48,003 bases of DNA from an uncultured Ruminococcus sp. (GTDB lineage: Bacteria; Bacillota; Clostridia; UBA1212), in assembly GCA_902782645.1 (NCBI GenBank), contig CACZNV010000157.1:1-48003 (forward strand), in the 5' to 3' direction. The notes under the pieces are model-generated. The model ran no database searches. It was given only the letters and a program-made list of their open reading frames with translations, and had not been told where the DNA came from. This document shows positions 5,907 through 44,625 of the stretch, piece after piece. A program made the position numbers and the translations under genes. How positions within the stretch are numbered: the stretch's first letter is position 1; each line of letters begins with the position of its first letter.

Positions 5907-6821
5907 TTAAGATGCGAGTATTGCAAAAAGTTCGCGCATCAGGCTGTCCCTGTGTATAAAAGTGGCTCTCCTGATAGGATGCCTTCTTACGTCGTGGCTG
6001 TAATGGAAATCGTACTGCGGAATTGGCGACGGGACTACTTCGGTAAACATAAAGCGGTCGTTGTCGTTAAGAAGCCAGGCAACTGCCGTCACATCCCAGA
6101 TGATTCTGCTCCAGATCATGCCCTTGGCGTATTCGTCGGCAGCTTCGCAGGTGTGCTTCACCAGGTAGTCGCAGAGGGGATTTTTGCCCTCGAGCCAATA
6201 CTTCAGCTCCGGACCGCTTGTGTAGAAGGTCGAGGCAACGCCCATGCACGGAAGCTGGACGAAGGGGCACCCGCAGCCCATCACGACCCTCGCGGCGGCG
6301 ATATCCTGCATCATGTTGAATTCGTTTGTGTCGAACCACTGCTCGCTGTGGCCGCCAAGCCAAACAACCACTATATTTTCCTTAATTTCCGGCTTTTTGA
6401 TGAGTGCGGAAGCCACGTTTGTGATGGCGCCGATGGCAACCACGTAAAGGGGCTTTTCCGGGCTGTGCTCCATGGCAAGCCTTACCAGTTCATCCGCCGC
6501 GGGGCTCTCCACGGGGGTCTGCTCGTCCTTAAGATAAGTTCTCGAGCCCCTGAAAGTCATGTTTTTGAGCTCGCTCTTGCCCATGAGATCAAGCAGGTTG
6601 AGAATCTCGTTGTACGAGCGCTCCATGCCGTCCTCGGGAGATGTTGAGTTCGAGTTGAAGAACGGTGCGGCAAGCAGCGCTTTCACATTGCACTTGGGGT
6701 GCTTGACCATAAGCGAAAGCGCGAACTGATCGTCTATCTCGTTGTATGTATCCGTATCGAGAACGCAATCGACAACGCCTTGCGGCACGCTGAGATTCTT
6801 CATAAACTGTTCGTGAGTCAT
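5907..6821 (-). CDS. Nucleoside hydrolase (inosine/uridine-preferring IUNH family)
   Basis: 304-aa ORF. The N-terminal aspartate cluster VLDTDTYNEIDDQFAL matches the DxDxxxDD signature. AGGAG lies 6 nt upstream of the ATG. Confidence 0.85.
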   Translation of the reverse strand: MTHEQFMKNLSVPQGVVDCVLDTDTYNEIDDQFALSLMVKHPKCNVKALLAAPFFNSNSTSPEDGMERSYNEILNLLDLMGKSELKNMTFRGSRTYLKDEQTPVESPAADELVRLAMEHSPEKPLYVVAIGAITNVASALIKKPEIKENIVVVWLGGHSEQWFDTNEFNMMQDIAAARVVMGCGCPFVQLPCMGVASTFYTSGPELKYWLEGKNPLCDYLVKHTCEAADEYAKGMIWSRIIWDVTAVAWLLNDNDRFMFTEVVPSPIPQYDFHYSHDVRRHPIRRATFIHRDSLMRELFAILAS

Positions 6822-6930
6822 AGTCTGCTCCTGTTATATATGCTTTATACACAGGCGCGCTCCGCGCGCCGTGTTTCAGGCCTTAATGTTACACTCTGAC
6901 AGGCAAAAATTCAAGGTATTCATTGGCGGC

Positions 6931-9933: not shown

Positions 9934-10614
9934 GTGAAAATTCGCTTTTTCGGGAGGATTATCATAATACCTCCCTGGCTTAAGTACACCTTTATCGGCG
10001 TTTTACTGGTTGCGCTTTCGGTCGCGGGTTTTCTTATAACGAAGCAGGCAAAGTCCGGGGTTGTGGGCACGGTCACCAATCCGGAAAACGGCAGGTCCTA
10101 CGTCAGAGAGACCTCTCAGCAGACTTCTGTTCCGCTTACGTTTCCACCCGAGACACCGGGGCCTGAGATGATTACGGTGTATATTGTGGGCGCCATCGAA
10201 AAGTCTGACGTTTACGACATTCCCGCAGGGAGCATACTTAACGACCTGGTCAAGCTGGCGGGAGGTTTTTCGGAAGGTGCGGATAAAGAAGCCATAAATC
10301 TTGCGTCCGCGCTGTCAAACGGCATGATGGTCAGGATTCCGTTTATTGGCGATAAAGATAAGCGCTGGGTTGTGGACGAGGGGACAAGCGGTTCGAGCGG
10401 CCATAGCATCTCTAACGGGGGTCTTGTGAATATAAACACTGCAGGGGTTGCGGAGCTTTGCACTCTGCCCGGGGTCGGCGAGAGCACCGCCCTCAAGATT
10501 ATAAGCTACAGGACTGAAAACGGAGCTTTTGCGGATATAACCGACATAATGAAGGTTGGCGGCATAAAAAGCGCCAGGTTTAACGAGATTAAAAACTTTA
10601 TCACAGTAGGCTGA
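9934..10614 (+). CDS. comEA: ComEA-family DNA receptor (SLBB plus tandem helix-hairpin-helix)
   Basis: 226-aa ORF with a GTG start and GGAGGG 10 nt upstream. It has an N-terminal TM helix. The C-terminus VNINTAGVAELCTLPGVGESTALKIISYRTENGAF is typical of ComEA. Confidence 0.85.
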   Translation: MKIRFFGRIIIIPPWLKYTFIGVLLVALSVAGFLITKQAKSGVVGTVTNPENGRSYVRETSQQTSVPLTFPPETPGPEMITVYIVGAIEKSDVYDIPAGSILNDLVKLAGGFSEGADKEAINLASALSNGMMVRIPFIGDKDKRWVVDEGTSGSSGHSISNGGLVNINTAGVAELCTLPGVGESTALKIISYRTENGAFADITDIMKVGGIKSARFNEIKNFITVG

Positions 10615-17000: not shown

Positions 17001-17648
17001 TCAATTTTCTCCGAAAATATCGCCAAGTATATCCATAACAAGTCCCTGTCTGAACCCTTTGCTCATAAGATACCTTGCAATCTTTTCGTATCCGTCTCCG
17101 TTTTTTGCCTTCTTTTCGGCAATTTCTCTCGCTATCGGCTCGTCGTCCGTGAAGAATGCGGTGACTGCCTCATTGGCGGTTTCACTGTCTATGCCCTTTG
17201 CTTTAAGCTCCCGCAGCACAAGGTTTCTTGAGGATTTTCCCTTGTCGGCTTTTTCCCGGGCATATTTTTCGGCGTAGAGCCTGTCGCTTATCTCGCCCTC
17301 CGATGAGAGCTCCGCTATCGCCTCTTCAACGACTTCCTCAGAAAACCCTTTTGAAAGCATTTTCATTTTGATCGCCGCAGAAGGTTTTGGTGATGCTTTC
17401 GCCAGCGACAGCGACATCGCTCTGCACCTGTTGTAATTCACATCGTGAATTAGCTCCGAATAGGTTCTCCTGTTCTCCTCGCCGGACGCATAAAGGTCGT
17501 ACTTGAAATACTCTTCCGCACCGAAAACACCCGAAGAACCGTTTTCGAAAGTCACCGTGTAGGTTCCGTCCTCATTCTTCTCATGCTCTGCGGCTATATA
17601 TTTCCCGTCGCTTTCGCGAAGGCCCTTGGAAAGAGGTTCCCTTATCAT
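17001..17648 (-). CDS. recX: RecX-family regulatory protein
   Basis: 215-aa helical-repeat ORF immediately downstream of recA. The C-terminal repeats (LKAKGI..., LMSKGF...) are typical of RecX. Confidence 0.75.
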   Translation of the reverse strand: MIREPLSKGLRESDGKYIAAEHEKNEDGTYTVTFENGSSGVFGAEEYFKYDLYASGEENRRTYSELIHDVNYNRCRAMSLSLAKASPKPSAAIKMKMLSKGFSEEVVEEAIAELSSEGEISDRLYAEKYAREKADKGKSSRNLVLRELKAKGIDSETANEAVTAFFTDDEPIAREIAEKKAKNGDGYEKIARYLMSKGFRQGLVMDILGDIFGEN

Positions 17649-17669
17649 TTCACGCCACCGTTAAGGATT

Positions 17670-18719
17670 TCAATCCTCTTCGTTTTCGGTCTCCTCTATG
17701 GACATCGGCACATTGGCGGATGACGTAAGCATAACGGAGCGCAGCTTCTCTTCGATTTCCAGAGCCACCTCGGGGTTGTCCTCAAGGAATACCTTGGCGT
17801 TTTCTCTGCCCTGTCCGATGCGTTTTCCGTCGTAGCTGAACCAGGATCCGCTCTTCACAACGATATCATTAAGCACCGCAAAGTCGAGAAGGGATCCGGA
17901 TTTCGAAATACCCTTGCCGTAAATGATGTCGAATTCCACATTTTTGAAAGGCGGAGCCACTTTGTTCTTCACGATCTTTGCCTTTGTCTTGTTACCGACA
18001 ACTTCGCCGCCCTCTTTTATGACATCGGTCTTCCTGATATCGATTCTCACAGAGGAATAGAACTTAAGAGCTCTTCCGCCGGTGGTCGTCTCCGGATTTC
18101 CGAACATGACGCCAATCTTTTCTCTGAGCTGGTTGATGAAAATAGCAACCGTATTTGACTTGTTTATAACACCCGAAAGCTTTCTCAGGGCCTGCGACAT
18201 AAGTCTTGCCTGCATACCCATGAAAGATTCGCCCATCTCGCCGTTGATTTCGGCTTTCGGAACAAGCGCCGCCACAGAGTCTATAACTATAACATCAATC
18301 GCTCCGCTTCTCACAAGAGCCTCGGTTATTTCAAGCGCCTGTTCTCCCGTATCCGGCTGGGAAACAAGCAGATTGTCGATATCAACGCCAAGGTTCTGAG
18401 CATAGATCGGATCAAGGGCATGCTCCGCATCGATAAACGCGGCTGCGCCTCCCGCTTTCTGCGCCTCTGCGATAACATGAAGTGCGACTGTTGTCTTACC
18501 TGACGACTCAGGTCCGTAAATCTCCACAATTCTTCCGCGGGGGAGTCCTCCCACGCCAAGTGCGGCATCGAGTCCGATGCAACCGGTTGAAATAGCTTCA
18601 ACAGCCATGTGTTTGTTCTCGCCAAGCTTCATAACCGAGCCCTGACCGTATTGTTTTTCTATTCCTGCAATCGCGGCGTCAAGGGCAGCTTTCTTATCCA
18701 TCATCTTTTTCTCATCCAT
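17670..18719 (-). CDS. recA: Recombinase RecA
   Basis: Contains Walker [10 protein letters not shown] and the text-book RecA sequence ([13 protein letters not shown]). I set the start at the ATG at 18719, with GGAGGG 9 nt upstream. The longer ORF would include the promoter. Confidence 0.97.
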
Positions 18720-18768
18720 GTTTTTTATCCCTCCACGGTTGTTAAACCTTTCCGGTTTTGTCCGGAAT

Positions 18769-18797
18769 ATTTTACCATTTTTCTCGTCCCGAGTCAA
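18769..18797 (-). promoter_or_regulatory. recA promoter, TTGACT-17-TAAAAT with a TG extension
   Basis: The minus strand reads TTGACTcgggacgagaaaaaTGgTAAAAT. The -35 is at 18792..18797 and the -10 at 18769..18774. Confidence 0.65.
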
Positions 18798-21755: not shown

Positions 21756-22612
21756 CTAATCCTCCAATCTATAACCTGTCCGGCAGGAAGCAGAAACAGC
21801 AGCGCACACGCGACAATCATGGGGATCGCGTAAAGGCCGAATTTCACAAAAGCCGGTGAGGGATAATAAGCAAATCCGAAATCTCCCGTTTTCTCGCCCA
21901 CGGCAATGAACGCCGCGCAAAACGCGGTGACAAGCAGCAGATCCGTATCGGACTCCCGCCACTTTTTATGCCTCGCAGAAGCTCTTCTTACAAGTCCGTA
22001 CCCTCTTGCCTTCATGGTCGATGCCATATCCATAGCATTTTCCACAGACCGCTCCGTCACGGACATGAACACCTTCGAAATAATCAGTGCCCTTTTAAAA
22101 TACCCCTTGCTCTCAAAAATACCCAGCATTTTCTGTGCGGAAAGGGTCTCTCTGAACTTCTTGATTATTTCCGGTATGTATCTCAGCGTAACCGTTATAA
22201 CAACAGACACGAAAGGAAGCACTTTTCCCAGCGTCATCACAAGGTCTTCGGTATCGGTTTCATCCGTAATGAAAACGCACCACATGGCAACCCCGACAAT
22301 CATGACTCCTGCCGAAAGTCCGTAATAGAAAGCTTCAAGCGTTATGTGCCGCCTCAGCAGATCGAACAGAATCGTTTTTCCGTCATGGGCAATAAAGCAG
22401 TTCATGACTCCAATCAGCAGAACCGAAACAATCCCGCCGCCAATGTACTTCAAGAGCCGCTTAAGCGGTGTACCTCCTGCTGCAAGAGCCGTTACCGCTC
22501 CGACCAGGGACATGCCCCTTACCGCAGGGTTTTCCGTAAACATTGAAATCGCGAAAATGACCGCAAAGAAAGCCAGTTTTGTTATCGGATGATAATTTCT
22601 GAACCGGTGCAT
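21725..22612 (-). CDS. ECF transporter transmembrane (T) component, CbiQ/EcfT family
   Basis: Polytopic ORF whose 3' end overlaps the ATPase start. I favour the ATG at 22612, with GGGAG 8 nt upstream. The ORF track start is 22627. Confidence 0.75.
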   Translation of the reverse strand: MHRFRNYHPITKLAFFAVIFAISMFTENPAVRGMSLVGAVTALAAGGTPLKRLLKYIGGGIVSVLLIGVMNCFIAHDGKTILFDLLRRHITLEAFYYGLSAGVMIVGVAMWCVFITDETDTEDLVMTLGKVLPFVSVVITVTLRYIPEIIKKFRETLSAQKMLGIFESKGYFKRALIISKVFMSVTERSVENAMDMASTMKARGYGLVRRASARHKKWRESDTDLLLVTAFCAAFIAVGEKTGDFGFAYYPSPAFVKFGLYAIPMIVACALLFLLPAGQVIDWRIRWQKSFESKA

Positions 22613-22657
22613 TAACGTTTCTCCCATTGACAGAATAAGTTGTCTTTCGACTCACGT

Positions 22658-22687
22658 ATTCTACCACAAAAAACGCCTGTATTTCAA
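22658..22687 (-). promoter_or_regulatory. Promoter of the ECF operon, TTGAAA-18-TAGAAT with a TG extension
   Basis: The minus strand reads TTGAAAtacaggcgttttttgTGgTAGAAT. It lies about 45 nt upstream of the ecfT start. Confidence 0.6.
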
Positions 22688-22730
22688 GAAAATGAGGATC
22701 CGCGGAGGAGCTATGCACTTGACGGAAACC

Positions 22731-22763
22731 AAAAAAAGGACAGCTTCAAAAATCAGCTGTCCT
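22731..22763 (-). terminator. Rho-independent terminator after the tRNA pair
   Basis: On the minus strand, the 9-bp stem AGGACAGCT/AGCTGTCCT has a 9-nt loop and is followed by T7. Confidence 0.85.
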
Positions 22764-22767
22764 CAAG

Positions 22768-22844
22768 TGGCGCGCCCAGCAGAGCTCGAATCCACAACCT
22801 TCTGGTCCGTAGCCAGACGCTCTATCCAATTGAGCTATGGGCGC
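22768..22844 (-). tRNA. tRNA-Arg (anticodon ACG), CCA encoded
   Basis: The reverse complement is GCGCCCATAGCTCAATTGGATAGAGCGTCTGGCTACGGACCAGAAGGTTGTGGATTCGAGCTCTGCTGGGCGCGCCA. I checked by eye the acceptor stem, the anticodon loop CTACGGA and the T-loop GGATTCGAGCTC. Confidence 0.93.
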
Positions 22845-22854
22845 ATATTCCGGA

Positions 22855-22944
22855 TGGCGGAAAGAGTGGGATTCGAACCCACGGATGGCAAAACCATCGC
22901 CGGTTTTCAAGACCGGTGCCTTAAACCAACTCGACCATCTTTCC
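22855..22944 (-). tRNA. tRNA-Ser (anticodon UGA), long variable arm, CCA encoded
   Basis: The reverse complement is GGAAAGATGGTCGAGTTGG...CCGGTCTTGAAAACCGG...GTGGGTTCGAATCCCACTCTTTCCGCCA. Acceptor stem GGAAAGA/TCTTTCC, anticodon loop CTTGAAA. Confidence 0.93.
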
Positions 22945-22968
22945 GTGTCATCCAAAGGCACGGAGCGG

Positions 22969-22997
22969 ATTTTAGCACAATCATGATAGCGTGTCAA
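22969..22997 (-). promoter_or_regulatory. Consensus promoter of the tRNA-Ser/Arg operon, TTGACA-17-TAAAAT with a TG extension
   Basis: The minus strand reads TTGACAcgctatcatgattgTGcTAAAAT. It ends about 25 nt upstream of the tRNA-Ser 5' end. Confidence 0.8.
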
Positions 22998-23094
22998 TGT
23001 TTTTTTGCGAAAAACGGTTGTGTTCGCAAACCCATTTTCAAAACGCTTTTGAACAGCAAATCATATTCGGTTAGGTCGGAATTTCTGTCCCGGA

Positions 23095-24141
23095 CTAAGC
23101 CGCCGACAGCACAATCCCGCAGTTTTCTGTTATCTTTATCATCACCTCCCGGTCCTTAATTCCCTTCTCGCATTCGCCCTTAACTTCTTCTCCGTCAACG
23201 GCAATCCCGTTCAGAGAAAAATCCTCAAGCAGCATTCTTCCGTCCCCCGTGATTACAAGTCTTGCGTGTCTCCTGCTGGCAAACAGGCTGGGCACACGGA
23301 TATCTGCCCAATCGCCGTCCCGTCCTATTCTCAGGCAAGTTTTCTTATCTCCTGCCACGCTTCTCTCCATCTCAAGAGGCTCAACATCGCCAATACCTCT
23401 GACATGAAGCACAAGTTGCTTCGGTTTTTCACATTCTGAGGGCTTCAGCCCTTTCGACTTAAAAAAGCCCAACAGCTTGTCTTTCAATGTTACATCCGTC
23501 GTCAGCCCTTCGATTCTTTCTATGAGTCTTTCAAGGTCCTCCGCCGTCTCTTCCGGGTTCTCCTCGGATCTTATTCTCCTCACGTCATCCCGCAAGAGTT
23601 CATAATCCGACGCAGGAACACTTTCAACGTCGATGTTAAGAAAAATAATCTTGACAAGGTCATTTACGGTCGTCCTCTCCTGCACATTTTTCAGTCCGGG
23701 CATGTAAAGAAACTTGTAATCGGACTCAACGTTCCTCACAATAACCGCATTGTAGTCATACACAAACTCCCTTGCATCGACCCCGTGTTCCTTTGCACAC
23801 GCCAAGAGCTTCCGCAGGCATGAGGCGATTCCTCTCAGCATTCTCAGTCCGGGCACATCGTCTCCGAACACCGTTTCTTTCAGTGTAGCTCTGCCCCTTA
23901 ACGTACATGTGTAGCCGTCAGGCGTGACGGTGGCAGGGAGTATTTCAGCCTGGTCGCAGTCGTTCAGAAACTCCTTTTCCTGCAGCGCCCTCTTGTAGCT
24001 AATGTAGCACCCTTCTCCTATAAGCCTCAAGGCCGTGGAAGACCTGTCGCTGCTGATCATGATGCAGTTGCCCTGTTCTTTAAGAGCCGTCTCTCCGAAG
24101 CGCTCCCCAATATTCTTTTCTTCAGAGAAACCGTTTACCAA
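23095..24141 (-). CDS. FHA-domain protein with an unassigned N-terminal region of about 250 aa (last gene of the Tad-like operon)
   Basis: 348-aa ORF with a TTG start and GAGGGGG 10 nt upstream. It overlaps the flp stop codon. The C-terminus LRIGRDGDWADIRVPSLFASRRHARLVITGDGRMLLEDFSLNGIAVDG is a canonical FHA core (G-R...S-R-x-H...N-G). Confidence 0.8.
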   Translation of the reverse strand: MVNGFSEEKNIGERFGETALKEQGNCIMISSDRSSTALRLIGEGCYISYKRALQEKEFLNDCDQAEILPATVTPDGYTCTLRGRATLKETVFGDDVPGLRMLRGIASCLRKLLACAKEHGVDAREFVYDYNAVIVRNVESDYKFLYMPGLKNVQERTTVNDLVKIIFLNIDVESVPASDYELLRDDVRRIRSEENPEETAEDLERLIERIEGLTTDVTLKDKLLGFFKSKGLKPSECEKPKQLVLHVRGIGDVEPLEMERSVAGDKKTCLRIGRDGDWADIRVPSLFASRRHARLVITGDGRMLLEDFSLNGIAVDGEEVKGECEKGIKDREVMIKITENCGIVLSAA

Positions 24142-24371
24142 TCCGTAAATACCCCCTCGGTCTTTGACTCAATGTTCTCAAACATATTGTTTGCGTATCT
24201 TGTGATGAATGTTTTGAACAGAAGCGCCAATGCGACAAGCACAGCCACAAGAAGCACTATTTCAACAGTGCCAAGCCCATTGGCGTCGTCCCTAAAACGG
24301 CAAAGTCTCTGTCTCAAAGACAGTGCACAGCCGCAAACGGTTTTACTGATTTTCATTGTTAATGATTTCAA
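24135..24371 (-). CDS. flp: Flp-family type IVb/IVc pilin precursor
   Basis: 78-aa ORF. The segment GLGTVEIVLLVAVLVALALLF matches the Flp processing/hydrophobic motif (G/xxxxE followed by a hydrophobic helix). TTG start with GGGGAGGGG 6 nt upstream. Confidence 0.65.
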   Translation of the reverse strand: MKSLTMKISKTVCGCALSLRQRLCRFRDDANGLGTVEIVLLVAVLVALALLFKTFITRYANNMFENIESKTEGVFTDW

Positions 24372-24428
24372 ATTCTACCCCTCCCCGGTGTTTATTATTT
24401 TATAGGCGATAAGCCGAAATTATCAAAT

Positions 24429-25157
24429 TCAAGAGGAAAACAGCCTGATCATTGCCGGCGCCGCAGTCAGGACAAGCACCGCAATAAGGACCATCACTGA
24501 GGGAATCACCATCAGTGTTGACGCCTCATCCGCCATCTGTTTTGAAATGGCCTTGCGCTCCTCTCTTTGGTTGGCGGCATGCATTCTGAGCAGCGGCGCA
24601 AGTTCATCCGCTCCTTTTCTCGAGTTCTGGATCACCAGCGACACAAACGTACTCACCTGGGCGTCGCCGCACCTTTTTGCAAGGTTTTCCATTGCCGTCT
24701 CGGGCTCGTAATAGTAGCCCGACTGGGTTGCAAAATCGCTGACCGTGTGTCTCAGCTCATCGCCAAGGGCTCCGTCCCGCTCTTTCATATAGCCGCTCAC
24801 AGTCACTATTGCGCTCCAGATTGGAACACCTGCATCCACAAGCACTGCAAGACGCTCGAGAAGGTCCGCAAGACCAAGCCTCAGCTTTCTTGTTTTTTTC
24901 TTTGCCTTGTCGTTTATCCCGTGTTCGGACATCACGGTCAGGATGACCGGCACGCCTGCGCCAAGCCCCGCCGCCTCACCAAGACTGAGTCCGAAAACCA
25001 TGCCGGTCGCAAACGTCAGCGCCCCGAAGACCGGAAGCATCCTGAAAAGCGTTTTCCTCTCCTTTTTCTTTTTTTCAAAGGCCTCTCCGTAGATGAACTT
25101 AAGCTTCCTGTTCATCGATTCATTGTACGAAGCCAGCGCCGAAAACCGAATCGCCAA
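24429..25157 (-). CDS. tadC: TadC-like type II secretion system F-family membrane protein
   Basis: 242-aa ORF with a T2SSF-like helical domain flanked by TM segments. Its position is downstream of tadB. TTG start preceded by a G7 tract. Confidence 0.72.
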   Translation of the reverse strand: MAIRFSALASYNESMNRKLKFIYGEAFEKKKKERKTLFRMLPVFGALTFATGMVFGLSLGEAAGLGAGVPVILTVMSEHGINDKAKKKTRKLRLGLADLLERLAVLVDAGVPIWSAIVTVSGYMKERDGALGDELRHTVSDFATQSGYYYEPETAMENLAKRCGDAQVSTFVSLVIQNSRKGADELAPLLRMHAANQREERKAISKQMADEASTLMVIPSVMVLIAVLVLTAAPAMIRLFSS

Positions 25158-25205
25158 CGGTCTCCCCCCCTCTCATAAACCACCAAACCCCTTGATTGTT
25201 GATCT

Positions 25206-25997
25206 TCATATCTCTATATTGCAAAGCTTGCTCCCGAGTATCCAGGCCCCGCCGATGAGCACCATTGCCCCTATTGAGATAAAAAGCCCGGCGCTGCTGC
25301 CGTACAAGGTGTCCATGTAACCCTTTGACATGCTTTTTACAAGAAGGACCAGCGCAAAAGGCATAACGGTAATGATTCTGAGGTTGTATCTTGGCAATGC
25401 AAGCGAGCCTGCAATCTCCGCATCCGTCTCAAATTTGATGCGTATGTTTGAAAGCGCATTTCTTATCACATAGGCCATGTTTCCTCCGCGAATACCGACA
25501 ATCGACATGGCTTTTACGCAGCTTATGATGTCCTCGCTCCCGGTCTTTCCGGCAAACTCAAGAAGCTCATCGTAAAAGTGGTAAAGCATCCCCGTCTTTC
25601 TGCACACTGCATCAAGCTCCGGAGCGATATGCGCGATTTTCAGCGAACTCCCGTTCCGGCAGTCACCGCACACCGACTCGAAGGCCTGCTCCACAGAATT
25701 TCCGGCAGTCACCGCCGCAAGAACCAGCTGCATCGCCTCAAGAAACTCTCTCTCAATCTTTCTCTTTCTTTTTGCCCTGAGTGAGATCAGGAAGCTTCTC
25801 ATGAAAAAAGGAAATGCCAATGCTGCAACCACAACCGACACATAGATATTGTTCGAAAGTATGAATGCGCCGGCTGTCACTGCGGCAAAGAACGCAAGCC
25901 CTGCGGCGGCGGGAATGACCGGATTCACGGCATACATTCCCTCCCCGCGGATAAAAAACTTTCCGAACAGATTCTTAAATCCCGCAGATTTTTTCAT
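25206..25997 (-). CDS. tadB: TadB-like type II secretion system F-family membrane protein
   Basis: T2SSF-like ORF. I favour the ATG at 25997 (GGAGGAG 10 nt upstream), which overlaps the tadA 3' end. The ORF track start is 26018. Confidence 0.72.
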   Translation of the reverse strand: MKKSAGFKNLFGKFFIRGEGMYAVNPVIPAAAGLAFFAAVTAGAFILSNNIYVSVVVAALAFPFFMRSFLISLRAKRKRKIEREFLEAMQLVLAAVTAGNSVEQAFESVCGDCRNGSSLKIAHIAPELDAVCRKTGMLYHFYDELLEFAGKTGSEDIISCVKAMSIVGIRGGNMAYVIRNALSNIRIKFETDAEIAGSLALPRYNLRIITVMPFALVLLVKSMSKGYMDTLYGSSAGLFISIGAMVLIGGAWILGSKLCNIEI

Positions 25998-27150
25998 AGA
26001 TTCTTGTCTCCTCCGCAAGCTCTCCTGTCTTCAATCCGTTTTTGTACAAAGTCTTAAGCGCCACCTTCCCGTCCTCCATTCCGGACACGTAGCATATTTC
26101 CGAGACAAAACGTTTCATATCGCTGTTCCGCTGCATGTGAACAACCAGATCAAGGCCCGAAGCTATCTGCTTTCTAATCGCTTCACTGTTGATATTTCCC
26201 TCCCAGAGAGCCATAGTCTCAAGCCTGGTTATAATATCTCTGGCGCTGTTACCGTGGGCCGTTGACATGCTCCCGTCGTGTCCCGTGCACATTGCCTGCA
26301 GCATATCCACCGCCGCAGAGTCTCTGACCTCGCCGACAATAATTCTGTCCGGTCTCATTCTCAAGGCGGTCTTTATAAGGGTTCTCATGCTCACGCCTCC
26401 CGCGCCGCCGGGTCCGGGCTCCCTGGTTTCAAGCCTCACAAGGTTGGGAGGCGAAAGTCTCAGCTCCGCGGAGTCCTCAACCGTGACAATGCGTTCGCTG
26501 TCAGGAATGAATTTACAGAGAACATTGAGGAAGGTAGTTTTGCCGCTCGAAGTGCCGCCGGACACGAATATATTAACCTTGGCTTTGACGCACCGGGCAA
26601 GAAACCCGGCCTCCTCGGCAGAAAGACTTCCAAGCCGCACCAGCTCTTCCATAACAAACGACTTGTCCGGAAACTTCCTTATCGTCACTATCGGCCCGTT
26701 TATCGCCACCGGCTTCAAAACCACGTTAACCCTGGAACCGTCCGAAAGCCTCGCATCCACGACAGGCGAACTCTCATTAACAGTCCTGTCAACCCATGAA
26801 ACCATCGACTGAATCACATTAAGCAGCACACCCGCATCGGAGAATCTTTTGTCATATCTCTCGATTTTTCCGTTCTTTTCGATGTAAATATTCTCCGTGC
26901 CGTTGATCATGATCTCGTTCACCTCCGGATCGTCCAGCAGCGGCTGCAGGATTCCAAGCTTACGGTGGGACGAAAAAACCGTCTCCGCAATCTCTTTCTT
27001 CTCCTCATCGCCAATGCCCGTCTTCCCCGCAAGTTCCTCAACACACTCAAGTGTCAGCTCCCTGAACTCCCGGTCGGAATACGCCCCGCCCGGCGCCAGT
27101 TTTTTCTTCAGCGATTTCTCCACATAGTCAACATAAAAACGGTTAACCAA
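25975..27150 (-). CDS. tadA: CpaF/TadA-family pilus assembly ATPase (T2SS E / VirB11-like)
   Basis: 391-aa ORF with Walker A GGTSSGKTT, the VTVEDSAEL Asp box, the RPDRIIVGEVR Walker B region and a His box TGHDGSMSTAH. TTG start with GGAGGG 10 nt upstream. Confidence 0.9.
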   Translation of the reverse strand: MVNRFYVDYVEKSLKKKLAPGGAYSDREFRELTLECVEELAGKTGIGDEEKKEIAETVFSSHRKLGILQPLLDDPEVNEIMINGTENIYIEKNGKIERYDKRFSDAGVLLNVIQSMVSWVDRTVNESSPVVDARLSDGSRVNVVLKPVAINGPIVTIRKFPDKSFVMEELVRLGSLSAEEAGFLARCVKAKVNIFVSGGTSSGKTTFLNVLCKFIPDSERIVTVEDSAELRLSPPNLVRLETREPGPGGAGGVSMRTLIKTALRMRPDRIIVGEVRDSAAVDMLQAMCTGHDGSMSTAHGNSARDIITRLETMALWEGNINSEAIRKQIASGLDLVVHMQRNSDMKRFVSEICYVSGMEDGKVALKTLYKNGLKTGELAEETRIYEKICGI

Positions 27151-27230
27151 ATCGGCAATTCCCTCCTTCCGTCACTGTTCTCTGCGGGAAAATGATAACA
27201 TGCGGGAGGGGGTTTTGATAGTCTGCACCG

Positions 27231-27310
27231 TACGACAAGTTTCGACGGTTTTCGACAAGTTTCGACGGTTTTCGACAAGTTTCGACGGCTTTCGACAGGT
27301 TTCGACAAAG
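27231..27310. repeat. Array of eight 10-bp units with a TTCGAC core (7 perfect copies plus 1 TACGAC), equal to 3.5 copies of the 20-bp unit TTCGACGGTTTTCGACAAGT
   Basis: The units are tacgacaagt, ttcgacggtt, ttcgacaagt, ttcgacggtt, ttcgacaagt, ttcgacggct, ttcgacaggt and ttcgacaaag. Cores start at 27231, 27241, ... 27301, an exact 10-bp register. Confidence 0.95.
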
Positions 27311-27321
27311 GCCGGCGGCAC

Positions 27322-27350
27322 TTGAAAAAACGGAGGGGTGAGAATATAAT
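27322..27350 (+). promoter_or_regulatory. Near-consensus promoter, TTGAAA-17-TATAAT
   Basis: TTGAAA at 27322..27327, a 17-nt spacer, then TATAAT at 27345..27350. It lies about 50 nt upstream of the GH78-like ATG and 16 bp downstream of the last TTCGAC unit. Confidence 0.75.
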
Positions 27351-27401
27351 TGCGGGGCGGATGAGGCCGCAGCGAGAATTGGCGATAAGGAGTCTTTCAG
27401 G

Positions 27402-29588
27402 ATGACACAGAAGGAAATGTTCGGTAAAGCGATTTGGGTTGAGCCCGCGGAGAAGACAGGTTTCCCTATTTTGAGGCGCGTTTTCAGAATTGGCGGCTTT
27501 GACAGGGTGACGCTGAGGGTCGCGGGGCTTGGCTTTTTCCACGCCTACATTAACGGGCGGGAGGTCAACGACAGCGCATTTTTGCCCCTTAACAGTGATT
27601 TTGAGGAGAGGAAGGACTATCCCGTTGGCGAGAAGCTTTTCGGACACAGGCTTATCGTGCCGGAGTTTGACATTACGGAAGCCGTCAGAGAGGGGGAAAA
27701 CCTGCTGGCGGTTCATTTTGGCGGCGGCTGGTACACTTTTCAGGCGGGGCCCTTCGGCGACGCCAAGGCAATCTACCTGATCACCGTCGAAAAAGGCGGC
27801 AGGACGGAGACGTTCTGTTCGGGGCCGGAGGACAGGTTTGCGGAGAGCTATGTTGGCGAGTACTGCTTTACCTTCCTGGAGAGCCACGACTACACGGATT
27901 TTGACGACAGAGTTCTTTCGGACCCTGCATGGGATAAAAAGACCGTTGAGGCAAAAGCCGCAAAGCCCCTTGAGACCGAGTACGTTTTTTCGGACTGCCC
28001 CGGGGACAAAGTGACCGAGGTGATAACGCCAAAGGTTATAAACGTGTGCGAAAAGGACGGCGCGAAGTGCACGGTGTACGATGCGGAGAAGAATATCTCG
28101 GCGATACCGGTTGTGAAAATTCTCGCAAAAAAAGGAGAAAAAGTTACCTTGGCGTTTTCGGAGGAGAAGACTCCGGACAATATGATCGACCCAAGGTTTA
28201 TGCACAGGCAGACCTTCACCGCGGTATCTGACGGAAAGGCCCGGACAATATCGCCAAGGTTCACATGGTTTGCCTTCAGGTTCATCGAGGTGTGCGGCGA
28301 CGCGGAAGTTGAAAGCGTGGGATTTGTGCATGCGGACATTGGCGTGTCATCCACTTTTGACTCGGACTGCGAGGCCCTCAACTGGCTCTACAAGGCGTAC
28401 ATCAACACCCAGCTCAGCAATATGCATGCAGGCATTCCTTCCGACTGTCCCCACATTGAACGAAGGGGCTATACGGGCGACGGCCAGCTCACCTGCAAGG
28501 CTGCTATGACCGTGCTTGACGCGAAAAAGTTTTACAGGAAGTGGATTGACGACATTTCGGACTGCCAGGACGTGTTGACGGGTCACATTCAGTACACTGC
28601 GCCTTATATAAGGAGCGGCGGCGGGCCCGGTGCCTGGGGCTGCGCAATCGTCGAGGTGCCTTACATTTTCTACAAAGAGTACGGCGACATCGAACCCGCC
28701 AAGAAGCTCTACCCCCAGATGCTCAGGTATTTCGACTACCTCGAGGAGCACTCGCTGAACGACATTGTGGTCAGCGACAAGGAAGGCGAGTGGTGCCTTG
28801 GCGACTGGTGCACTCTCACCCCCACAGCCCTTCCGGCAGGATTTGTGAACAACTACTATTACATAAAGTCAATGAGGCGGGCCATCGAAACCGCCAAGCT
28901 CATCGGCAGGGAGAGCGACATTCCGGCTCTTTCGGAGAAGATTGACGCAAGGCTTAAAGCCACCAAGGCGGCCTACTACAACACCTGGGACCACAATTTT
29001 CTCGCCAACATTCAAGGCGCCAATGCATTTGCCCTCGACATGGGGCTTGGCGATGACGCCACGAAACAGTTCCTCGTTAGCTACTACACTAAACTCAGGC
29101 AGTTTGACACGGGTATCTGCGGCACGGACGTGGTCACAAAGGTGCTTTTTGACATCGGTCAGGGTGATGTTGCCGTGGATTTGCTGCTTGGCGACAGGAC
29201 TTTCGCAGGCTGGATGAAAGCAGGCTTCACAACCCTCAGTGAGTACTGGCTGAACTCCACAAGGGACCGCTCCCACAGCCACCCGATGTTCGGCTCCCCC
29301 GTCACATATTTCTTTGAGAGACTCCTCGGCATCACCCAGGAAAAGGATTCTGCGGGCTACGAAAAGCTCGTGATTGCGCCATTCATTCCTTCCCAATCAA
29401 ACCGCCTCTCCGGTTCCAGGGAGCTTCCCTGCGGCAAGGTTTCCGCAAGCTACGAAAGAGACGCCAAGGTCACGAGCCTCATTCACGCCAAGGTCACCCT
29501 CCCTGCCGGCAAAACCGCAAGGTTCCTGCATAACGGAGTTGAAAAGACTCTGACGGAAGGCAAAAACGAGTTTGACTTTAATGTCTGA
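27402..29588 (+). CDS. GH78-like alpha-L-rhamnosidase family protein (second, divergent paralogue), no signal peptide
   Basis: 728-aa ORF. The motif IPSDCPHIERRGYTGDGQL resembles the DCPQRDERLGWTGD signature. AAGGAG RBS. Confidence 0.75.
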   Translation: MTQKEMFGKAIWVEPAEKTGFPILRRVFRIGGFDRVTLRVAGLGFFHAYINGREVNDSAFLPLNSDFEERKDYPVGEKLFGHRLIVPEFDITEAVREGENLLAVHFGGGWYTFQAGPFGDAKAIYLITVEKGGRTETFCSGPEDRFAESYVGEYCFTFLESHDYTDFDDRVLSDPAWDKKTVEAKAAKPLETEYVFSDCPGDKVTEVITPKVINVCEKDGAKCTVYDAEKNISAIPVVKILAKKGEKVTLAFSEEKTPDNMIDPRFMHRQTFTAVSDGKARTISPRFTWFAFRFIEVCGDAEVESVGFVHADIGVSSTFDSDCEALNWLYKAYINTQLSNMHAGIPSDCPHIERRGYTGDGQLTCKAAMTVLDAKKFYRKWIDDISDCQDVLTGHIQYTAPYIRSGGGPGAWGCAIVEVPYIFYKEYGDIEPAKKLYPQMLRYFDYLEEHSLNDIVVSDKEGEWCLGDWCTLTPTALPAGFVNNYYYIKSMRRAIETAKLIGRESDIPALSEKIDARLKATKAAYYNTWDHNFLANIQGANAFALDMGLGDDATKQFLVSYYTKLRQFDTGICGTDVVTKVLFDIGQGDVAVDLLLGDRTFAGWMKAGFTTLSEYWLNSTRDRSHSHPMFGSPVTYFFERLLGITQEKDSAGYEKLVIAPFIPSQSNRLSGSRELPCGKVSASYERDAKVTSLIHAKVTLPAGKTARFLHNGVEKTLTEGKNEFDFNV

Positions 29589-34945: not shown

Positions 34946-35767
34946 TCAGACGCCCGAGTAAGCTGAGAAGCCGCCGTCTATCGGAAGCACCACGCCCGTC
35001 ACAAAAGCTGCCTTCTCATCGTCAATCAGAAACTTCACGGCGCCCACAAGCTCCTCCGGCTCGCCAAAGCGCTTCATCGGCGTGGCGTTTAAGATTTTGT
35101 TTGTCCTTGGCGTCGGGGTGCCGTCCTTGTTGAAAAGGAGGTCCCTGTTCTGGTTTGTGACGAAAAATCCGGGGGCAATGGCGTTGACCCTGATGCCCGC
35201 TCCGGCAAAGTGAACCGCCAGCCACTGGGTGAGGTTGGAAACGCCGGCCTTGGCGCTGCTGTAGGCGGGAATCTTTGTGAGGGGCCTGTAGGCGTTCATG
35301 GACGAAATGTTGAGGATCGAGCCGCCGGTTTTTACCATATCCTTGGCGAATACCTGGGTCGGTATCATGACGCCAACGATATTGAGGTCAAACACAAAGT
35401 TGAAGTCCTTCTTGTCAAGGTTGAAGAACGTTTTGAAGTCGTCTGCTTCCTCGTCGCCGTCGGCATATGTCTCGTTTTTGGTGGTGCAGCGGGGGTTGTT
35501 GCCTCCGGCTCCGTTTATAAGAACGCTGCAGGGTCCCAAGTCCTTAAGGACCTCCTCCCTGACAGCTTCCAGCATATCCCGGTCAAGCACGTTGGCCTTG
35601 TAAGCCTTGGCGGTGCCTCCGTCTTTACATATCTCATCGGCAACGAGTTTAGCCGCATCATAGTTGAGGTCAAGAAGAGCGACGGAAAATCCGTCTTTTG
35701 CAAGTTCTTTCGCAAAGCAGGAGCAAAGGACTCCGCCGGCGCCGGTTATTACCGCAGTTTTAGCCAT
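34946..35767 (-). CDS. SDR-family oxidoreductase, probably a mannonate/fructuronate oxidoreductase (B. subtilis YjmF/UxuB type)
   Basis: 273-aa ORF with TGAGGVLC Rossmann and YSSAK catalytic motifs. It lies immediately downstream of uxuA, as in the yjmE-yjmF arrangement. Confidence 0.7.
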   Translation of the reverse strand: MAKTAVITGAGGVLCSCFAKELAKDGFSVALLDLNYDAAKLVADEICKDGGTAKAYKANVLDRDMLEAVREEVLKDLGPCSVLINGAGGNNPRCTTKNETYADGDEEADDFKTFFNLDKKDFNFVFDLNIVGVMIPTQVFAKDMVKTGGSILNISSMNAYRPLTKIPAYSSAKAGVSNLTQWLAVHFAGAGIRVNAIAPGFFVTNQNRDLLFNKDGTPTPRTNKILNATPMKRFGEPEELVGAVKFLIDDEKAAFVTGVVLPIDGGFSAYSGV

Positions 35768-35803
35768 AAAACAGCCTCCGTTTTTATGTTTTCGGTGGTT
35801 AAC

Positions 35804-36847
35804 TCACCGTTTCAGTGTTTTTTCAATTCCCTCAAAAAGGCCCGTCAGGTATGTGGCTCCGAGGGCTCTGTCGTAGAGACCGTAGCCGCCCTTGCCTGTT
35901 TCGCCCCATATCATGCGGCCGTGATCAGGCCTTACATAGCCGTCAAAACCGCCCTCAAGAAGGCCCTTCACAATCCCATACATATCAAGGGACCCTTCGT
36001 CGGTGGGATGGGCCACCTCGTGGAATTCCCTGTACCCCGTGATCTTAATGTTGCGCAGGTGCGCGAAATGAATCCTCTTGGCGAATTTCTTTGCCATTTT
36101 AGGAAGATCGTTGTCCGTGGAGGCGCCAAGGGATCCCGTGCAGAACGTGAGCCCGTTCTCGGGCATGTCCACAAGCTTCAGAAACCGTTCAATGTTTTTC
36201 TCATTGGTTATGATTCTGGGAAGTCCGAAAATGCCCCATGGCGGATCGTCGGGATGTATGGCCATGTTCACGCCTGCCTCATGGGCTGCAGGTATGACCG
36301 CCTTAAGGAAGCGCTCCATGTTTTTCCAAAGGCCCTCCTCGCCAATGACCGCATACCGCCCCATCAGCTCCTTGAGTTCCTTCTTCGTATAGCTCTCATC
36401 CCAGCCCGGCAGGCTGAACTCACCGTTTAACGGGTCAAGCTTCGCCAATTCCTTTTCGTCATATGACAAGCCGTTTGCACCTTCCGGCAGCTCGTTTTTA
36501 AGGTTAGTCCTGAACCAGTCAAACACGGGCATAAAGTTGTAGCAAATGCAGTCGACGCCTGCGGCGCCGAGCCTCCGCACGTTCTCGCAGTAGACCCCTA
36601 TCAGTTCATCTGCGGAGGCTCCCCCGAGCTTGATTTCCTCAGGCACCGGAACGCTCTCGACCACAGTGAAATCAAGCCCGGCTGCATTTGCGCTTTTCTT
36701 GATCCGGTCGATGCTCTCAACGCTCCAGAGCTTGCCCGGAGCAACGTCATAGACAGCAGAAACAATACCCGTCATGCCCGGAATCTGTCTGATCTGATCG
36801 AGCGTGACCTTGTCGTTTTCGCCGTACCAGCGGAATGTCATTTTCAT
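35804..36847 (-). CDS. uxuA: Mannonate dehydratase
   Basis: From the ATG at 36847, the N-terminus MKMTFRWYGENDKVTLDQIRQIPGMTGIVSA is the hallmark UxuA N-terminus. GGAGG lies 9 nt upstream. Confidence 0.92.
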   Translation of the reverse strand: MKMTFRWYGENDKVTLDQIRQIPGMTGIVSAVYDVAPGKLWSVESIDRIKKSANAAGLDFTVVESVPVPEEIKLGGASADELIGVYCENVRRLGAAGVDCICYNFMPVFDWFRTNLKNELPEGANGLSYDEKELAKLDPLNGEFSLPGWDESYTKKELKELMGRYAVIGEEGLWKNMERFLKAVIPAAHEAGVNMAIHPDDPPWGIFGLPRIITNEKNIERFLKLVDMPENGLTFCTGSLGASTDNDLPKMAKKFAKRIHFAHLRNIKITGYREFHEVAHPTDEGSLDMYGIVKGLLEGGFDGYVRPDHGRMIWGETGKGGYGLYDRALGATYLTGLFEGIEKTLKR

Positions 36848-42678: not shown

Positions 42679-44625
42679 TCATTCTCCGGGAAAAAGATAG
42701 AGGTTGAAACAGCCGGATTCGTCGGGTGTGCCGTCAAACAATGCGGTCTTTTCCGGGTCAGCGTAAGGGGTCCCGTATCCGTCTCTGAAATGCAGGTACG
42801 CGTAGTCGTCTTTCGGTATCGTCAGTGTGTATTTGATTTCACTCTGCGTGCCTGCGTCGTAAATCACGTTGACCGTTTTGGTTTCTTCGCCGTCGGTCGT
42901 GAGGTGTTTGACCTTTCTTGCCAACATATCCTCATAATTTGACGTGATGTCCACGTCGTAGCAGACCGCGGTCATGTCAAAAAACATACGTGTATCGCCA
43001 AGGACTAAATACTCGTATGATGTTAATATTTCCAGAGTTTCCGCGGATATTGTATATTCCACCTCCAGAACCGCACCGACATAGCGGTCCTGTTCTTCAT
43101 TGTTCTTGGCTTCGAGGGCTTTGCGGGTGTCGGCCTCGTTCATCCTTGTAATCACTGTGAGGGTGCCGTTGCCGTTATCGATGACATTGACAATTTTTTC
43201 GGTGGCGGTCGTGTCCTTGTTTATCGGAGTGGACAGATCTTCGGGGCGCACAGCTCCCGCCGCTTTCATCTCCTCTTCGCTCATTGCAAACCAGTCGACA
43301 CTGAACTTCACCGAGCCGTCCTGGAGAATTCTTCTGCAGAAGTTTCCGTCACTGTCGATCAGATTCTCATAGTCGCCGTAGTTGCTCTCGTAATACAGAC
43401 CCTGTTTGTAGCAGAAGAACCAATCGGTTCCGTACATACTGTGCGATTCAACGTATGCCGTCTCATGGTTCTTAAAAACGCTTTCAGGCAAGTTTGCGTT
43501 AACAAGCGCCTCCATGGTGACGTCGCCAATGCCGTAAACCTGTTTTCTGAGCTTCAGCGCCTCCAGGGACAATGTGTAGAATCTGTTATAAACAGCATCC
43601 GAGGGGTTGGTCAGCACGTAAACGCTCAAGTCAGACTTTTCGTCCCAGTTAATGATCTTATCCACAGATAAATAGTCGGCGTCGGAGAAAACGGCGGAAC
43701 CTTCGTCCGAGTCAACCGTAAAGGTGCTGCCTTTGGGCATGGTGAGACTCACCCGGTACTCATTCTCGGTGTCCTTGTCAACCGTGACGTCAACAGTCAT
43801 CATTGGCTTGTTCACGGTTTCAAATTCAGCCCGGAGAGTGCGGCAGGAAGAAGGCTCTTCGGTATCGTATAAGGCCTCTATGGAGTAAACGAGTCCGGTT
43901 TTACCGTCTTTTTCGGCAGACAACGAATTCGACACAAGCTCGCAGTTTTCGGCATTTACTACAAGTTCCGCATGTATGATCTCGCCGTCATATTCTCTTC
44001 GGAGAGTCCCCTCGACAACTTTTCTGCTCTGTTCACCGTCGTAAACGGTCAGAATATGGATCATGCCGTCCTCTTTGAAAGCTTTTTCAAAAAACTCATG
44101 TTCTCTGTCAAGGAACTGATTTTCTTCGACTCCGAACACCTTGTAGAACGGATCATACTCGTCAGCAACTACTAAGATGCCGCAGCAGGTTGAAGCCTGT
44201 CCTTCCCCGTCCGGCTCATTTTTGTAGTATGTGCGGTTTTTGTAGTACCGCGCATAGTTCAGGCCCGGCCAATCCTCAAATAAGCACTCCCCGGTCTCCC
44301 AACAGGTATTATTCCACTCCGGTTTTTCCGCGTATGTGAACACATACTGCAGAGAACTGTGGCGACTTATCAAAGTGTCAAACTGGTTTTCTGTAAAGAC
44401 GCGGTGAGAAAGATCAGTAAAGGAGGCCTCGTCTATGATCTCCCGAACCTTGCCGTCGTCAGGCGAAGCAGAAGGCAAGTCTGAAGGCGCAGCCGTTGGC
44501 GACGCGGAAGGTAAAGGTTCTTTCTCGTCTCTGCAGCCTGCGAACACGCCAAGCGCAACAGTTATTGAAATCAGCACGATGATTATGCGTTTCATGTTCA
44601 TTGATTTGTACCCCGATCGTTTCAT
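42679..44625 (-). CDS. Large lipoprotein of unknown function
   Basis: 648-aa ORF with a signal peptide and lipobox FAGC. A short Ser/Pro-rich linker follows, then no motif I recognise. The start is ambiguous among three ATGs (44625, 44601, 44595). Confidence 0.6.
   Translation of the reverse strand: MKRSGYKSMNMKRIIIVLISITVALGVFAGCRDEKEPLPSASPTAAPSDLPSASPDDGKVREIIDEASFTDLSHRVFTENQFDTLISRHSSLQYVFTYAEKPEWNNTCWETGECLFEDWPGLNYARYYKNRTYYKNEPDGEGQASTCCGILVVADEYDPFYKVFGVEENQFLDREHEFFEKAFKEDGMIHILTVYDGEQSRKVVEGTLRREYDGEIIHAELVVNAENCELVSNSLSAEKDGKTGLVYSIEALYDTEEPSSCRTLRAEFETVNKPMMTVDVTVDKDTENEYRVSLTMPKGSTFTVDSDEGSAVFSDADYLSVDKIINWDEKSDLSVYVLTNPSDAVYNRFYTLSLEALKLRKQVYGIGDVTMEALVNANLPESVFKNHETAYVESHSMYGTDWFFCYKQGLYYESNYGDYENLIDSDGNFCRRILQDGSVKFSVDWFAMSEEEMKAAGAVRPEDLSTPINKDTTATEKIVNVIDNGNGTLTVITRMNEADTRKALEAKNNEEQDRYVGAVLEVEYTISAETLEILTSYEYLVLGDTRMFFDMTAVCYDVDITSNYEDMLARKVKHLTTDGEETKTVNVIYDAGTQSEIKYTLTIPKDDYAYLHFRDGYGTPYADPEKTALFDGTPDESGCFNLYLFPGE

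Follow-up and report, generated by a model that had tools for sequence, protein, structure and literature searches.

Tad/Flp pili make up the type IVc pili, and the described examples include the tad locus of Aggregatibacter, the cpa locus of Caulobacter, the tad locus of Bifidobacterium breve, and a 13-gene locus of Bulleidia. These systems have in common a CpaF/TadA ATPase, the platform proteins TadB and TadC, and an Flp prepilin with the processing site G/A↓xxxxE. We analyzed a stretch of 48,003 nucleotides (nt) from an uncultured Ruminococcus sp. (Clostridia, UBA1212; GenBank assembly GCA_902782645.1, contig CACZNV010000157.1, positions 1 to 48,003), referred to here as the window, which carries a tad cassette of only five genes at positions 23095 to 27150. 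The genes are tadA, tadB, tadC, flp, and a fifth gene whose product combines a DUF6382-like domain with an FHA domain. In contrast to the known Tad/Flp pili, this cassette is without TadZ, TadV, TadE, and TadF in the regions scanned and has the DUF6382-FHA gene in addition. The pilins of its family also have Ile or Val, and not Tyr, after the Glu of the processing site.

An FHA phosphothreonine reader is likewise associated with the Tad ATPase module in class III CpaF proteins, mostly of Betaproteobacteria, and in KilF of the Myxococcus xanthus Kil system, in both of which the FHA domain is fused to the N terminus of CpaF. An earlier note on this DNA, made from the sequence alone (the original prediction), had mentioned FHA proteins in Tad-like machines of Myxococcus, which agrees with KilF in the form of this fusion. 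However, these proteins belong to diderms and are encoded together with many further genes, whereas the window encodes a separate FHA protein with a putative kinase-like domain in a monoderm cassette of five genes. The same architecture, DUF6382 at the N terminus followed by FHA at the C terminus, was described for TseJ, which is cytoplasmic, and TsfJ, which has two transmembrane helices between the domains, of the type VII secretion systems (T7SS) T7SSe and T7SSf (Garrett et al. 2024, PMC11217815). Hydrophobic, transmembrane segments similarly separate the two domains in several distant members of the cassette family, yet these members are located in Tad cassettes. TseJ and TsfJ have the FtsK-like ATPase EssC, with its WXG100 substrates, as their partner, whereas the partner in the cassette is CpaF/TadBC/Flp, and neither the window nor any of the loci sampled contained an FtsK/EssC or WXG100 gene. 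In T7SSb, the FHA domains of the ATPase EssC are bound by the pseudokinase domain of EssB (YukC) (PMC11217815). A pseudokinase fold and an FHA domain cooperate there on the cytoplasmic side of a secretion ATPase, as the two domains of the window protein may do. In that system separate proteins carry the two domains and the FHA domains have no phosphothreonine pocket, whereas the window protein combines both domains and retains an intact pocket, without demonstrated sequence similarity to EssB. The one paper on DUF6382 found in the literature is this description of TseJ and TsfJ. We found no paper on this cassette, on Tad loci of monoderms that encode an FHA protein, or on Spo0A control of a Tad operon, in line with the view of the original prediction that an FHA gene in such a locus is uncharacterized.

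The cassette is a real conserved unit under purifying selection, and every copy examined is preceded by an array of phased sequence boxes. We give about an even chance to the reading that it encodes a self-contained Tad-type filament machine in which the FHA adaptor takes the place of TadZ, the prepilin peptidase acts in trans, and Spo0A~P is the probable activator. Three features were unexpected, namely that so small a gene set is conserved, that its adaptor is shared with type VII systems, and that the phased array can expand; the function and the regulation are what we infer from the sequences.

Gene content and organization

The five genes of the cassette are as follows.

27150..25975, minus strand: tadA/cpaF, hexameric assembly ATPase, 391 amino acids (aa); PF00437 T2SSE, E = 4e-58
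25997..25206 (gene call, 263 aa; the longest open reading frame [ORF] starts at 26018), minus strand: tadB-like inner-membrane platform protein; PF00482 T2SSF, E = 3e-7
25157..24429, minus strand: tadC-like inner-membrane platform protein, 242 aa; PF00482 T2SSF, E = 7e-8
24371..24135, minus strand: flp, Flp1-like prepilin, 78 aa; PF16982 Flp1_like, E = 4.5e-15
24141..23095, minus strand: fifth gene, predicted cytoplasmic DUF6382-like/FHA protein, 348 aa; PF00498, E = 2.6e-9, residues 271-322

The ORFs, their common strand, and their Pfam matches agree with the five-gene tadA-tadB-tadC-flp-FHA operon that had been predicted. The genes are tightly packed, overlapping or at most 57 nt apart, and the start of the fifth gene overlaps the stop of flp. 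The core of a Tad system is present, with a CpaF/TadA-family ATPase, a TadB/TadC platform split over two genes with one T2SSF domain each, as is typical for Tad systems, and a class III Flp pilin. The ATPase matched the TadA-family model TIGR03819 with 291 bits, and its closest solved structures were those of CpaF, the Caulobacter Tad ATPase (8rkd and 9e24, E ~2e-84), with archaeal FlaI (1e-40) and VirB11 far behind. In a precomputed annotation, every cassette ATPase (e.g., L001:6992-8167; sampled loci are numbered with the prefix L) additionally has a weak match to PF27713 (UCP018868), which is absent from a direct Pfam scan.

The leader of the Flp prepilin ends in [K/R/N]-[G/A] and is followed by [L/M]-G-T-[I/V]-E, which places the Glu at position +5 in six lineages. 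In the same lineages, G34, T35, E37, and the hydrophobic helix do not vary, and the predicted cleavage at [G/A]↓[L/M]GT[I/V]E would release a nearly invariant mature pilin of ~46 aa. Judged from these residues, the site is a class III (Flp-type) processing site. That it is conserved argues for a prepilin peptidase acting on the pilin in trans. The Flp family, with at least 463 clusters, is larger than the family of the fifth protein. The best 120 of these clusters are all Flp1_like, and the few source-named ones among those 120 come from uncultured Clostridia or from metagenome-assembled genomes of Oscillospiraceae.

Conservation and selection

A word-indexed search with the fifth protein returned seven relatives. 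A profile of its N-terminal domain (N-domain; 190 N-terminal residues), searched with HMMER over 1.84 billion representative proteins, returned only 38 clusters, all of ~300 to 400 aa. At seven syntenic orthologous loci (L003-L016), the same five genes occur in the same order between the rhamnosidase gene and a block of tRNA, energy-coupling factor (ECF) transporter, and recA genes, and the fifth protein is 37 to 71% identical to that of the window. The five-gene order was also kept at all seven of the distant members sampled (L017, L019, L141, L142, L143, L144, and L145; ~17 to 29% identical). The neighborhoods of these distant members are mreB/murC (L019, L141, and L142) or aroA/mscS (L017 and L144), and L143 and L145 are on short contigs. 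The composition of the cassette is constant over 12 or more lineages, which represent four or more unrelated neighborhoods, with no accessory gene ever joining it, and all 14 sampled genomic contexts of the fifth-protein subfamily are Tad cassettes. The carriers are uncultured rumen or gut Clostridia (Mageeibacillus sp. UBA1243/UBA1212, Clostridia bacterium RGIG, Ruminococcus sp. RUG13779, and "Candidatus Egerieisoma faecipullorum"), and a tblastn search of the PLSDB plasmids with the N-domain gave no match.

The ratios of nonsynonymous to synonymous substitution (dN/dS) between the window and L008 were 0.05 for tadA, 0.08 for tadB, 0.04 for tadC, 0.07 for flp, and 0.13 for the fifth gene, at dS values above 1, which are saturated. 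At each of the loci examined, none of the five ORFs is disrupted. The original prediction had named loss or disruption of the cassette in relatives as the mark of a decaying locus; the cassette was instead found to be kept, with intact ORFs and dN/dS values of 0.04 to 0.13, so that this sign of decay is lacking. That the cassette is what remains of a larger, decaying tad operon, as the small number of genes could suggest, is for practical purposes ruled out by the same observations together with the conserved promoter.

The neighborhoods also bear on what the cassette might build. Micrococcus luteus has Tad-like competence pili, and the product could by analogy be a short pseudopilus for DNA uptake, or one for protein export, with no adhesive pilus being formed. 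The single tiny pilin without minor pilins or an adhesin would fit such a structure, as would the presence of a comEA-like gene (SLBB + HHH_3; 9934-10614, plus strand) and of recA-recX (18797..17001, minus strand) within 5 to 14 kb of the cassette. However, the linkage to recA and comEA is limited to this lineage, the distant cassettes adjoining mreB/murC or aroA/mscS, and no comEC, comF, or substrate genes travel with the cassette. We therefore consider a pseudopilus very unlikely.

In three distant lineages, an mreB/mbl gene lies directly after the cassette (L019:11125-12144, L141:4792-5811, and L142:9258-10280) and is followed by a convergent Mur ligase gene. This adjacency may have been inherited from a common ancestor, or it may mean that the cassette is functionally connected with cell-wall synthesis.

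Components absent from the locus

The window is the final 48 kb of a 101.7-kb scaffold. Every window ORF of at least 90 aa was scanned with Pfam, and the gene calls in the 10 kb that lie on the far side of position 1 of the window (L020) were inspected, which brought the coverage to ~58 kb of one scaffold. These 10 kb contain the start of the dcw cluster. Neither the scanned ORFs, nor the adjoining 10 kb, nor the cassette flanks of any relative contained a Peptidase_A24 protein (TadV/CpaA), a TadZ/CpaE localization ATPase (ParA/MinD/AAA_31 type), or a member of the TadE family (TadE/TadF). RcpA/B/C and TadD/G were absent from the same regions, as expected for a monoderm. The short gaps within the operon (at most 57 nt) leave no space for extra minor-pilin genes. 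The absence of a prepilin peptidase, TadZ, and TadE/F near the cassette had been claimed in the original prediction, which also allowed that these components might be encoded just outside the window. The claim held for the window ORFs and for the 10 kb beyond position 1, where none of these components was present. Prepilin peptidases are often shared between systems or unlinked, and a locus without one is for this reason not unusual.

The missing components could be encoded at a second locus. The cassette would then be one half of a split standard Tad system, with TadZ, TadV, TadE, and TadF elsewhere, and the FHA protein would be an add-on regulator, not a substitute for TadZ. The frequent separation of prepilin peptidases from the systems that they serve is consistent with such a split, the class III site of the pilin requires at least the peptidase in trans, and the ~58 kb inspected belong to one scaffold. 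We nevertheless consider a split system unlikely. The typical tad operons of Firmicutes hold 10 to 13 genes together, including tadV, tadZ, and tadE/F, and the published TadZ structure is from Eubacterium rectale, whereas the five-gene set stays constant across the lineages and neighborhoods described above without being joined by an accessory gene. The fifth gene is moreover strictly coinherited with the others and overlaps the flp stop.

The DUF6382-like/FHA protein

The fifth protein consists of a putative kinase-like domain that probably belongs to the DUF6382 family (residues ~25-215), a disordered linker (~216-240), and an FHA domain (~243-348). The original prediction had described it as an FHA protein; this is correct with regard to the FHA domain, but the protein is more than that, as it also has the N-domain. 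PF19909 (DUF6382) was matched by 28 of the 36 family members and the FHA domain by 33, and by transitive homology the N-domain of the window protein was treated as a divergent DUF6382 member. An AlphaFold2 model built on a 36-sequence alignment had a mean predicted local distance difference test (pLDDT) score of 88, with both domains above 90; an earlier run with 7 sequences had given a pLDDT of 61 for the N-domain. In a Foldseek search of the PDB with this model, FHA domains ranked first (CT664, E = 1e-7; also YscD, Rad53, and EmbR). The N-domain matched the kinase domains of EGFR, RIP1, and Src (E = 2-6e-4) with template modeling (TM) scores of 0.28 to 0.39 over 240 to 270 aligned columns, and the order of its secondary-structure elements is compatible with a small kinase-like fold. 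In the 36-member alignment, no Gly loop, VAIK Lys, HRD, or DFG motif was recognizable in the N-domain, and the only residues invariant over the 36 members were Y77, D129, and P148. Based on the model and these comparisons, we propose with moderate confidence that the N-domain is pseudokinase-like.

The residues predicted to form the phosphothreonine pocket of the FHA domain (G273, R274, S289, R290, H292, N311, and G312) are invariant in the clade of the window, and they are lost in some distant subgroups. Because these residues are intact, control through phosphothreonine, as had been proposed in the original prediction, is plausible; the device under such control could be a fiber or a secretion machine, the two roles that had been suggested with it.

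Promoter and phased box array

A 251-nt intergenic region precedes tadA. On the coding strand, it contains in order the boxes, GGTGCAGAC, the -35 element, the spacer, the extended -10 element TG-T-TATCAT, GGAGG as the ribosome-binding site, and TTG as the start codon.

27307..27230, minus strand: phased array of eight boxes at 10-bp spacing, four TGTCGAA, three CGTCGAA, and one degenerate TGTCGTA (reading of the sequence and Tandem Repeats Finder [TRF])
27192..27220, minus strand: putative sigma-A-type promoter with a weak -35 element TATCAA (27220..27215), a 17-nt spacer, and an extended -10 element (TG at 27200-27199 and TATCAT at 27197..27192) (direct reading)

Seven GTCGAAA sequences lie exactly 10 bp apart in the array of the window, for which TRF reported a period of 10 (7.5 copies) and a 20-bp unit with 96% matches. 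The array ends ~39 nt upstream of the -10 element. The operon promoter scores below the threshold of a generic consensus scan, and TGnTA(T/G)CAT was found at a constant distance from the last box at L003, L007, L008, L011, L012, L016, L017, L019, L141, and L144. The original prediction had placed the repeat array where TadZ is usually encoded. The array does lie upstream of tadA, but it is a conserved promoter/operator region and no functional replacement for TadZ.

Every cassette examined has between 2 and 17 boxes upstream of tadA that end just before the -35 element, compared with the 0.1 to 0.35 boxes per 260 nt that are expected from the locus-wide density of G[TA]CGAA. The numbers at the individual loci are as follows.

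L012: 2 boxes
L003/L015, L008/L010, and L011: 9 boxes
L007: 10 boxes
L016 (RUG13779): 17 boxes upstream of tadA, at ~6700-6900, in which GTCGAA and GACGAA alternate
L019: 2-3 boxes
L141: 2 perfect TGTCGAA boxes, 20 bp apart
L142: 2 CGACGAA boxes
L017 and L144: ~4 boxes, degenerate
L145: 6 phased TGACGnn boxes

Since synonymous sites between the loci are saturated, the persistence of the boxes indicates that they are kept by selection. Upstream of the nine intact boxes of L003, ~170 nt (6580-6750) show a degenerate 10-bp periodicity (GTGnCnGAAa), and this tract looks like decayed older copies of the box. The variable copy number, the 20-bp duplication unit of the window, and the decayed tract of L003 together indicate that the arrays expand and contract. 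The range from 2 boxes (L012) to 17 (L016) among close orthologues suggests that the change is rapid and occurs by slippage of 10- or 20-bp units.

A scan of metagenomes for three phased GTCGAAA boxes gave at least 120 matches. Most of them were tandem repeats of a perfect 10-mer, and they came from unrelated taxa with G+C contents of 22 to 69%. None of these matches adjoins a tad cassette, and the scan is uninformative about Spo0A. On the unrelated metagenome contigs L060, L100, L112, and L120, a second repeat family, GCCTTGACATTGA, lies on the flanks of arrays of the 10-mer TGTCGAAATG, without tad genes in the vicinity.

Candidate regulator and proposed mechanism

The boxes of the window match the "0A box" of the sporulation regulator Spo0A, TGTCGAA, four of them exactly. 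In Bacillus and Clostridioides, TGTCGAA is the core box bound by Spo0A, with G2, C4, and G5 being critical for binding, and two 0A boxes 3 bp apart, which corresponds to a 10-bp period, constitute a footprinted Spo0A site. Boxes upstream of a promoter (spoIIG and spo0A Ps) activate transcription, whereas those downstream (abrB) repress it. The TGTCGAA core, the 3-bp gaps, and the position upstream of a weak -35 element are common to the cassette arrays, the Spo0A promoters of spoIIG, spoIIA, and spo0A (Ps), and the tandem 0A boxes of abrB and phage phi29/Nf A2c. The cassette arrays differ in that they have 7 to 17 boxes compared to 1 to 4, and in that many boxes start with C or have A at position 3; Spo0A binding to them is a prediction. 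In no lineage is the cassette accompanied by a regulator gene. This suggests a global regulator, and we propose Spo0A~P as the most likely activator of the array.

Combining these observations, we propose the following mechanism. The operon would be transcribed from the sigma-A-type promoter with its weak -35 and extended -10 elements, and an activator would bind the head-to-tail TG(T/A)CGAA array with one box per helical turn. Spo0A~P would thereby switch the operon on, and the filament would appear at entry into stationary phase or sporulation. The CpaF/TadA ATPase would drive the TadB/TadC platform to polymerize the single, very small Flp1-like pilin, after a prepilin peptidase encoded elsewhere had cut it at the predicted class III site. 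The DUF6382-FHA protein, presumably cytoplasmic, would take over the hub or adaptor role of TadZ and would dock to or gate the ATPase-platform complex, coupling assembly or activity to Ser/Thr phosphorylation. The expected product is a thin Flp fiber, presumably adhesive.

A number of points weigh against this mechanism. The filament is predicted from its genes, and the cassette has no minor pilins, which normally prime Tad pili. No Ser/Thr kinase was found near the cassette, and over the sampled lineages no kinase or phosphatase was consistently linked to it, which counts against the claim of phosphothreonine regulation. The kinase-like assignment of the N-domain draws on Foldseek matches with E values of ~1e-4 and TM scores of ~0.3 over the whole protein; the N-domain profile found nothing significant among PDB sequences, there was no Pfam kinase match, and the window protein itself has no PF19909 match even at E ≤ 1. 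With regard to the regulator, a tblastn search of 370 kb of cassette loci with an approximate sequence of the C-terminal domain of Bacillus subtilis Spo0A gave no match, although absence is not implied by this small sample. No sporulation genes were recognized in the window with Pfam on ORFs of at least 90 aa or with NCBIfam markers on the unannotated ORFs. The nearest named relative, Mageeibacillus indolicus, has a reduced genome and is listed as lacking spo0A and most sporulation genes. Arrays of 7 to 17 boxes are, to our knowledge, far larger than any Spo0A site.

The phased boxes could alternatively be bound by a factor other than Spo0A, such as a CtsR-like repressor, an OmpR/PhoB-type response regulator, or a lineage-specific protein; only the regulatory step would then change. 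The lack of Spo0A in M. indolicus would fit such a factor, given that we infer the presence of Spo0A in the cassette carriers, and so would the C in place of T as the first base of many boxes and the occurrence of up to 17 boxes, for which Spo0A sites offer no precedent. The CtsR operator consists of GGTCAAA heptads in tandem, one every 10 bp, and we take this heptad to be one mismatch away from the GTCGAA of the window box, which also weakens the case for Spo0A. However, the invariant core of the boxes, G-(T/A)-C-G-A-A, equals TGNCGAA/TGTCGAA. The central CG that Spo0A requires is conserved in the boxes, whereas CtsR sites have CA there, and the position of the boxes upstream of the -35 element is the geometry of an activator, whereas CtsR operators overlap the promoter. 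The absence of any linked regulator gene favors a global regulator, and many nonsporulating Clostridia retain spo0A. A factor other than Spo0A thus appears possible but rather doubtful, and we retain Spo0A~P as the probable activator.

Tentatively, the cassettes could also be seen as an unrecognized class of Tad system that is doubly gated, once by Spo0A~P acting on an expandable array of 2 to 17 boxes with a tunable threshold or cooperativity and once by the pseudokinase-FHA adaptor. The DUF6382-FHA protein would in that case be a portable plug-in for unrelated membrane ATPase machines of Bacillota, and the product would be an organelle of stationary phase or early sporulation that dispenses with TadZ and minor pilins. 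We regard this extension as speculative and would not count on all of it being correct.

If the cassette is a self-contained filament machine, it would represent a conserved Tad gene set smaller than any other that we know from bacteria, consisting of an ATPase, two platform proteins, a pilin, and an adaptor, and it would provide a tractable system for defining the minimum needs of type IV filament building in monoderms. The pseudokinase-FHA adaptor family, known so far only from variant type VII loci, would be linked to a second, unrelated secretion ATPase, which would suggest that Bacillota have a general module for control through phosphothreonine. The promoter arrays would form a natural series of 2 to 17 phased sites for a global regulator, probably Spo0A, in which the number of sites could be related to the response threshold. 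The carriers are abundant, uncultured, fiber-associated Clostridia of the rumen and gut, for which adhesion organelles would be ecologically relevant.

Other features of the window

Two further promoter-like sites lie within or next to the cassette.

24397..24426, minus strand, between tadC and flp: promoter-like site TTGATA-18-TAAAAT, possible internal pilin promoter (consensus scan)
27322-27350, plus strand: strong sigma-70-like promoter TTGAAA-17-TATAAT of the divergent alpha-L-rhamnosidase gene (27402-29588, plus strand) (consensus scan)

The internal site may serve flp separately and could in this way raise the expression of the pilin. Only ~15 nt separate the start of the rhamnosidase promoter from the distal end of the array, and a factor bound to the array may also affect the rhamnosidase gene in this lineage. 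Genes for tRNA-Ser and tRNA-Arg close the locus downstream, and an Rfam scan of positions 22000-28000 for a riboswitch or leader returned two tRNAs and nothing else.

Three ORFs elsewhere in the window, at 3604-5838 (minus strand, 744 aa), 35210-36430 (plus strand, 406 aa), and 42679-44625 (minus strand, 648 aa), had no Pfam or NCBIfam match at E ≤ 1e-3. Near the tRNA-Asn gene at the end of the window, a gene for a Fic/DOC protein with an HTH_17 domain (46757-47662, minus strand) adjoins that of a 615-aa HD-domain protein (44862-46709, minus strand).

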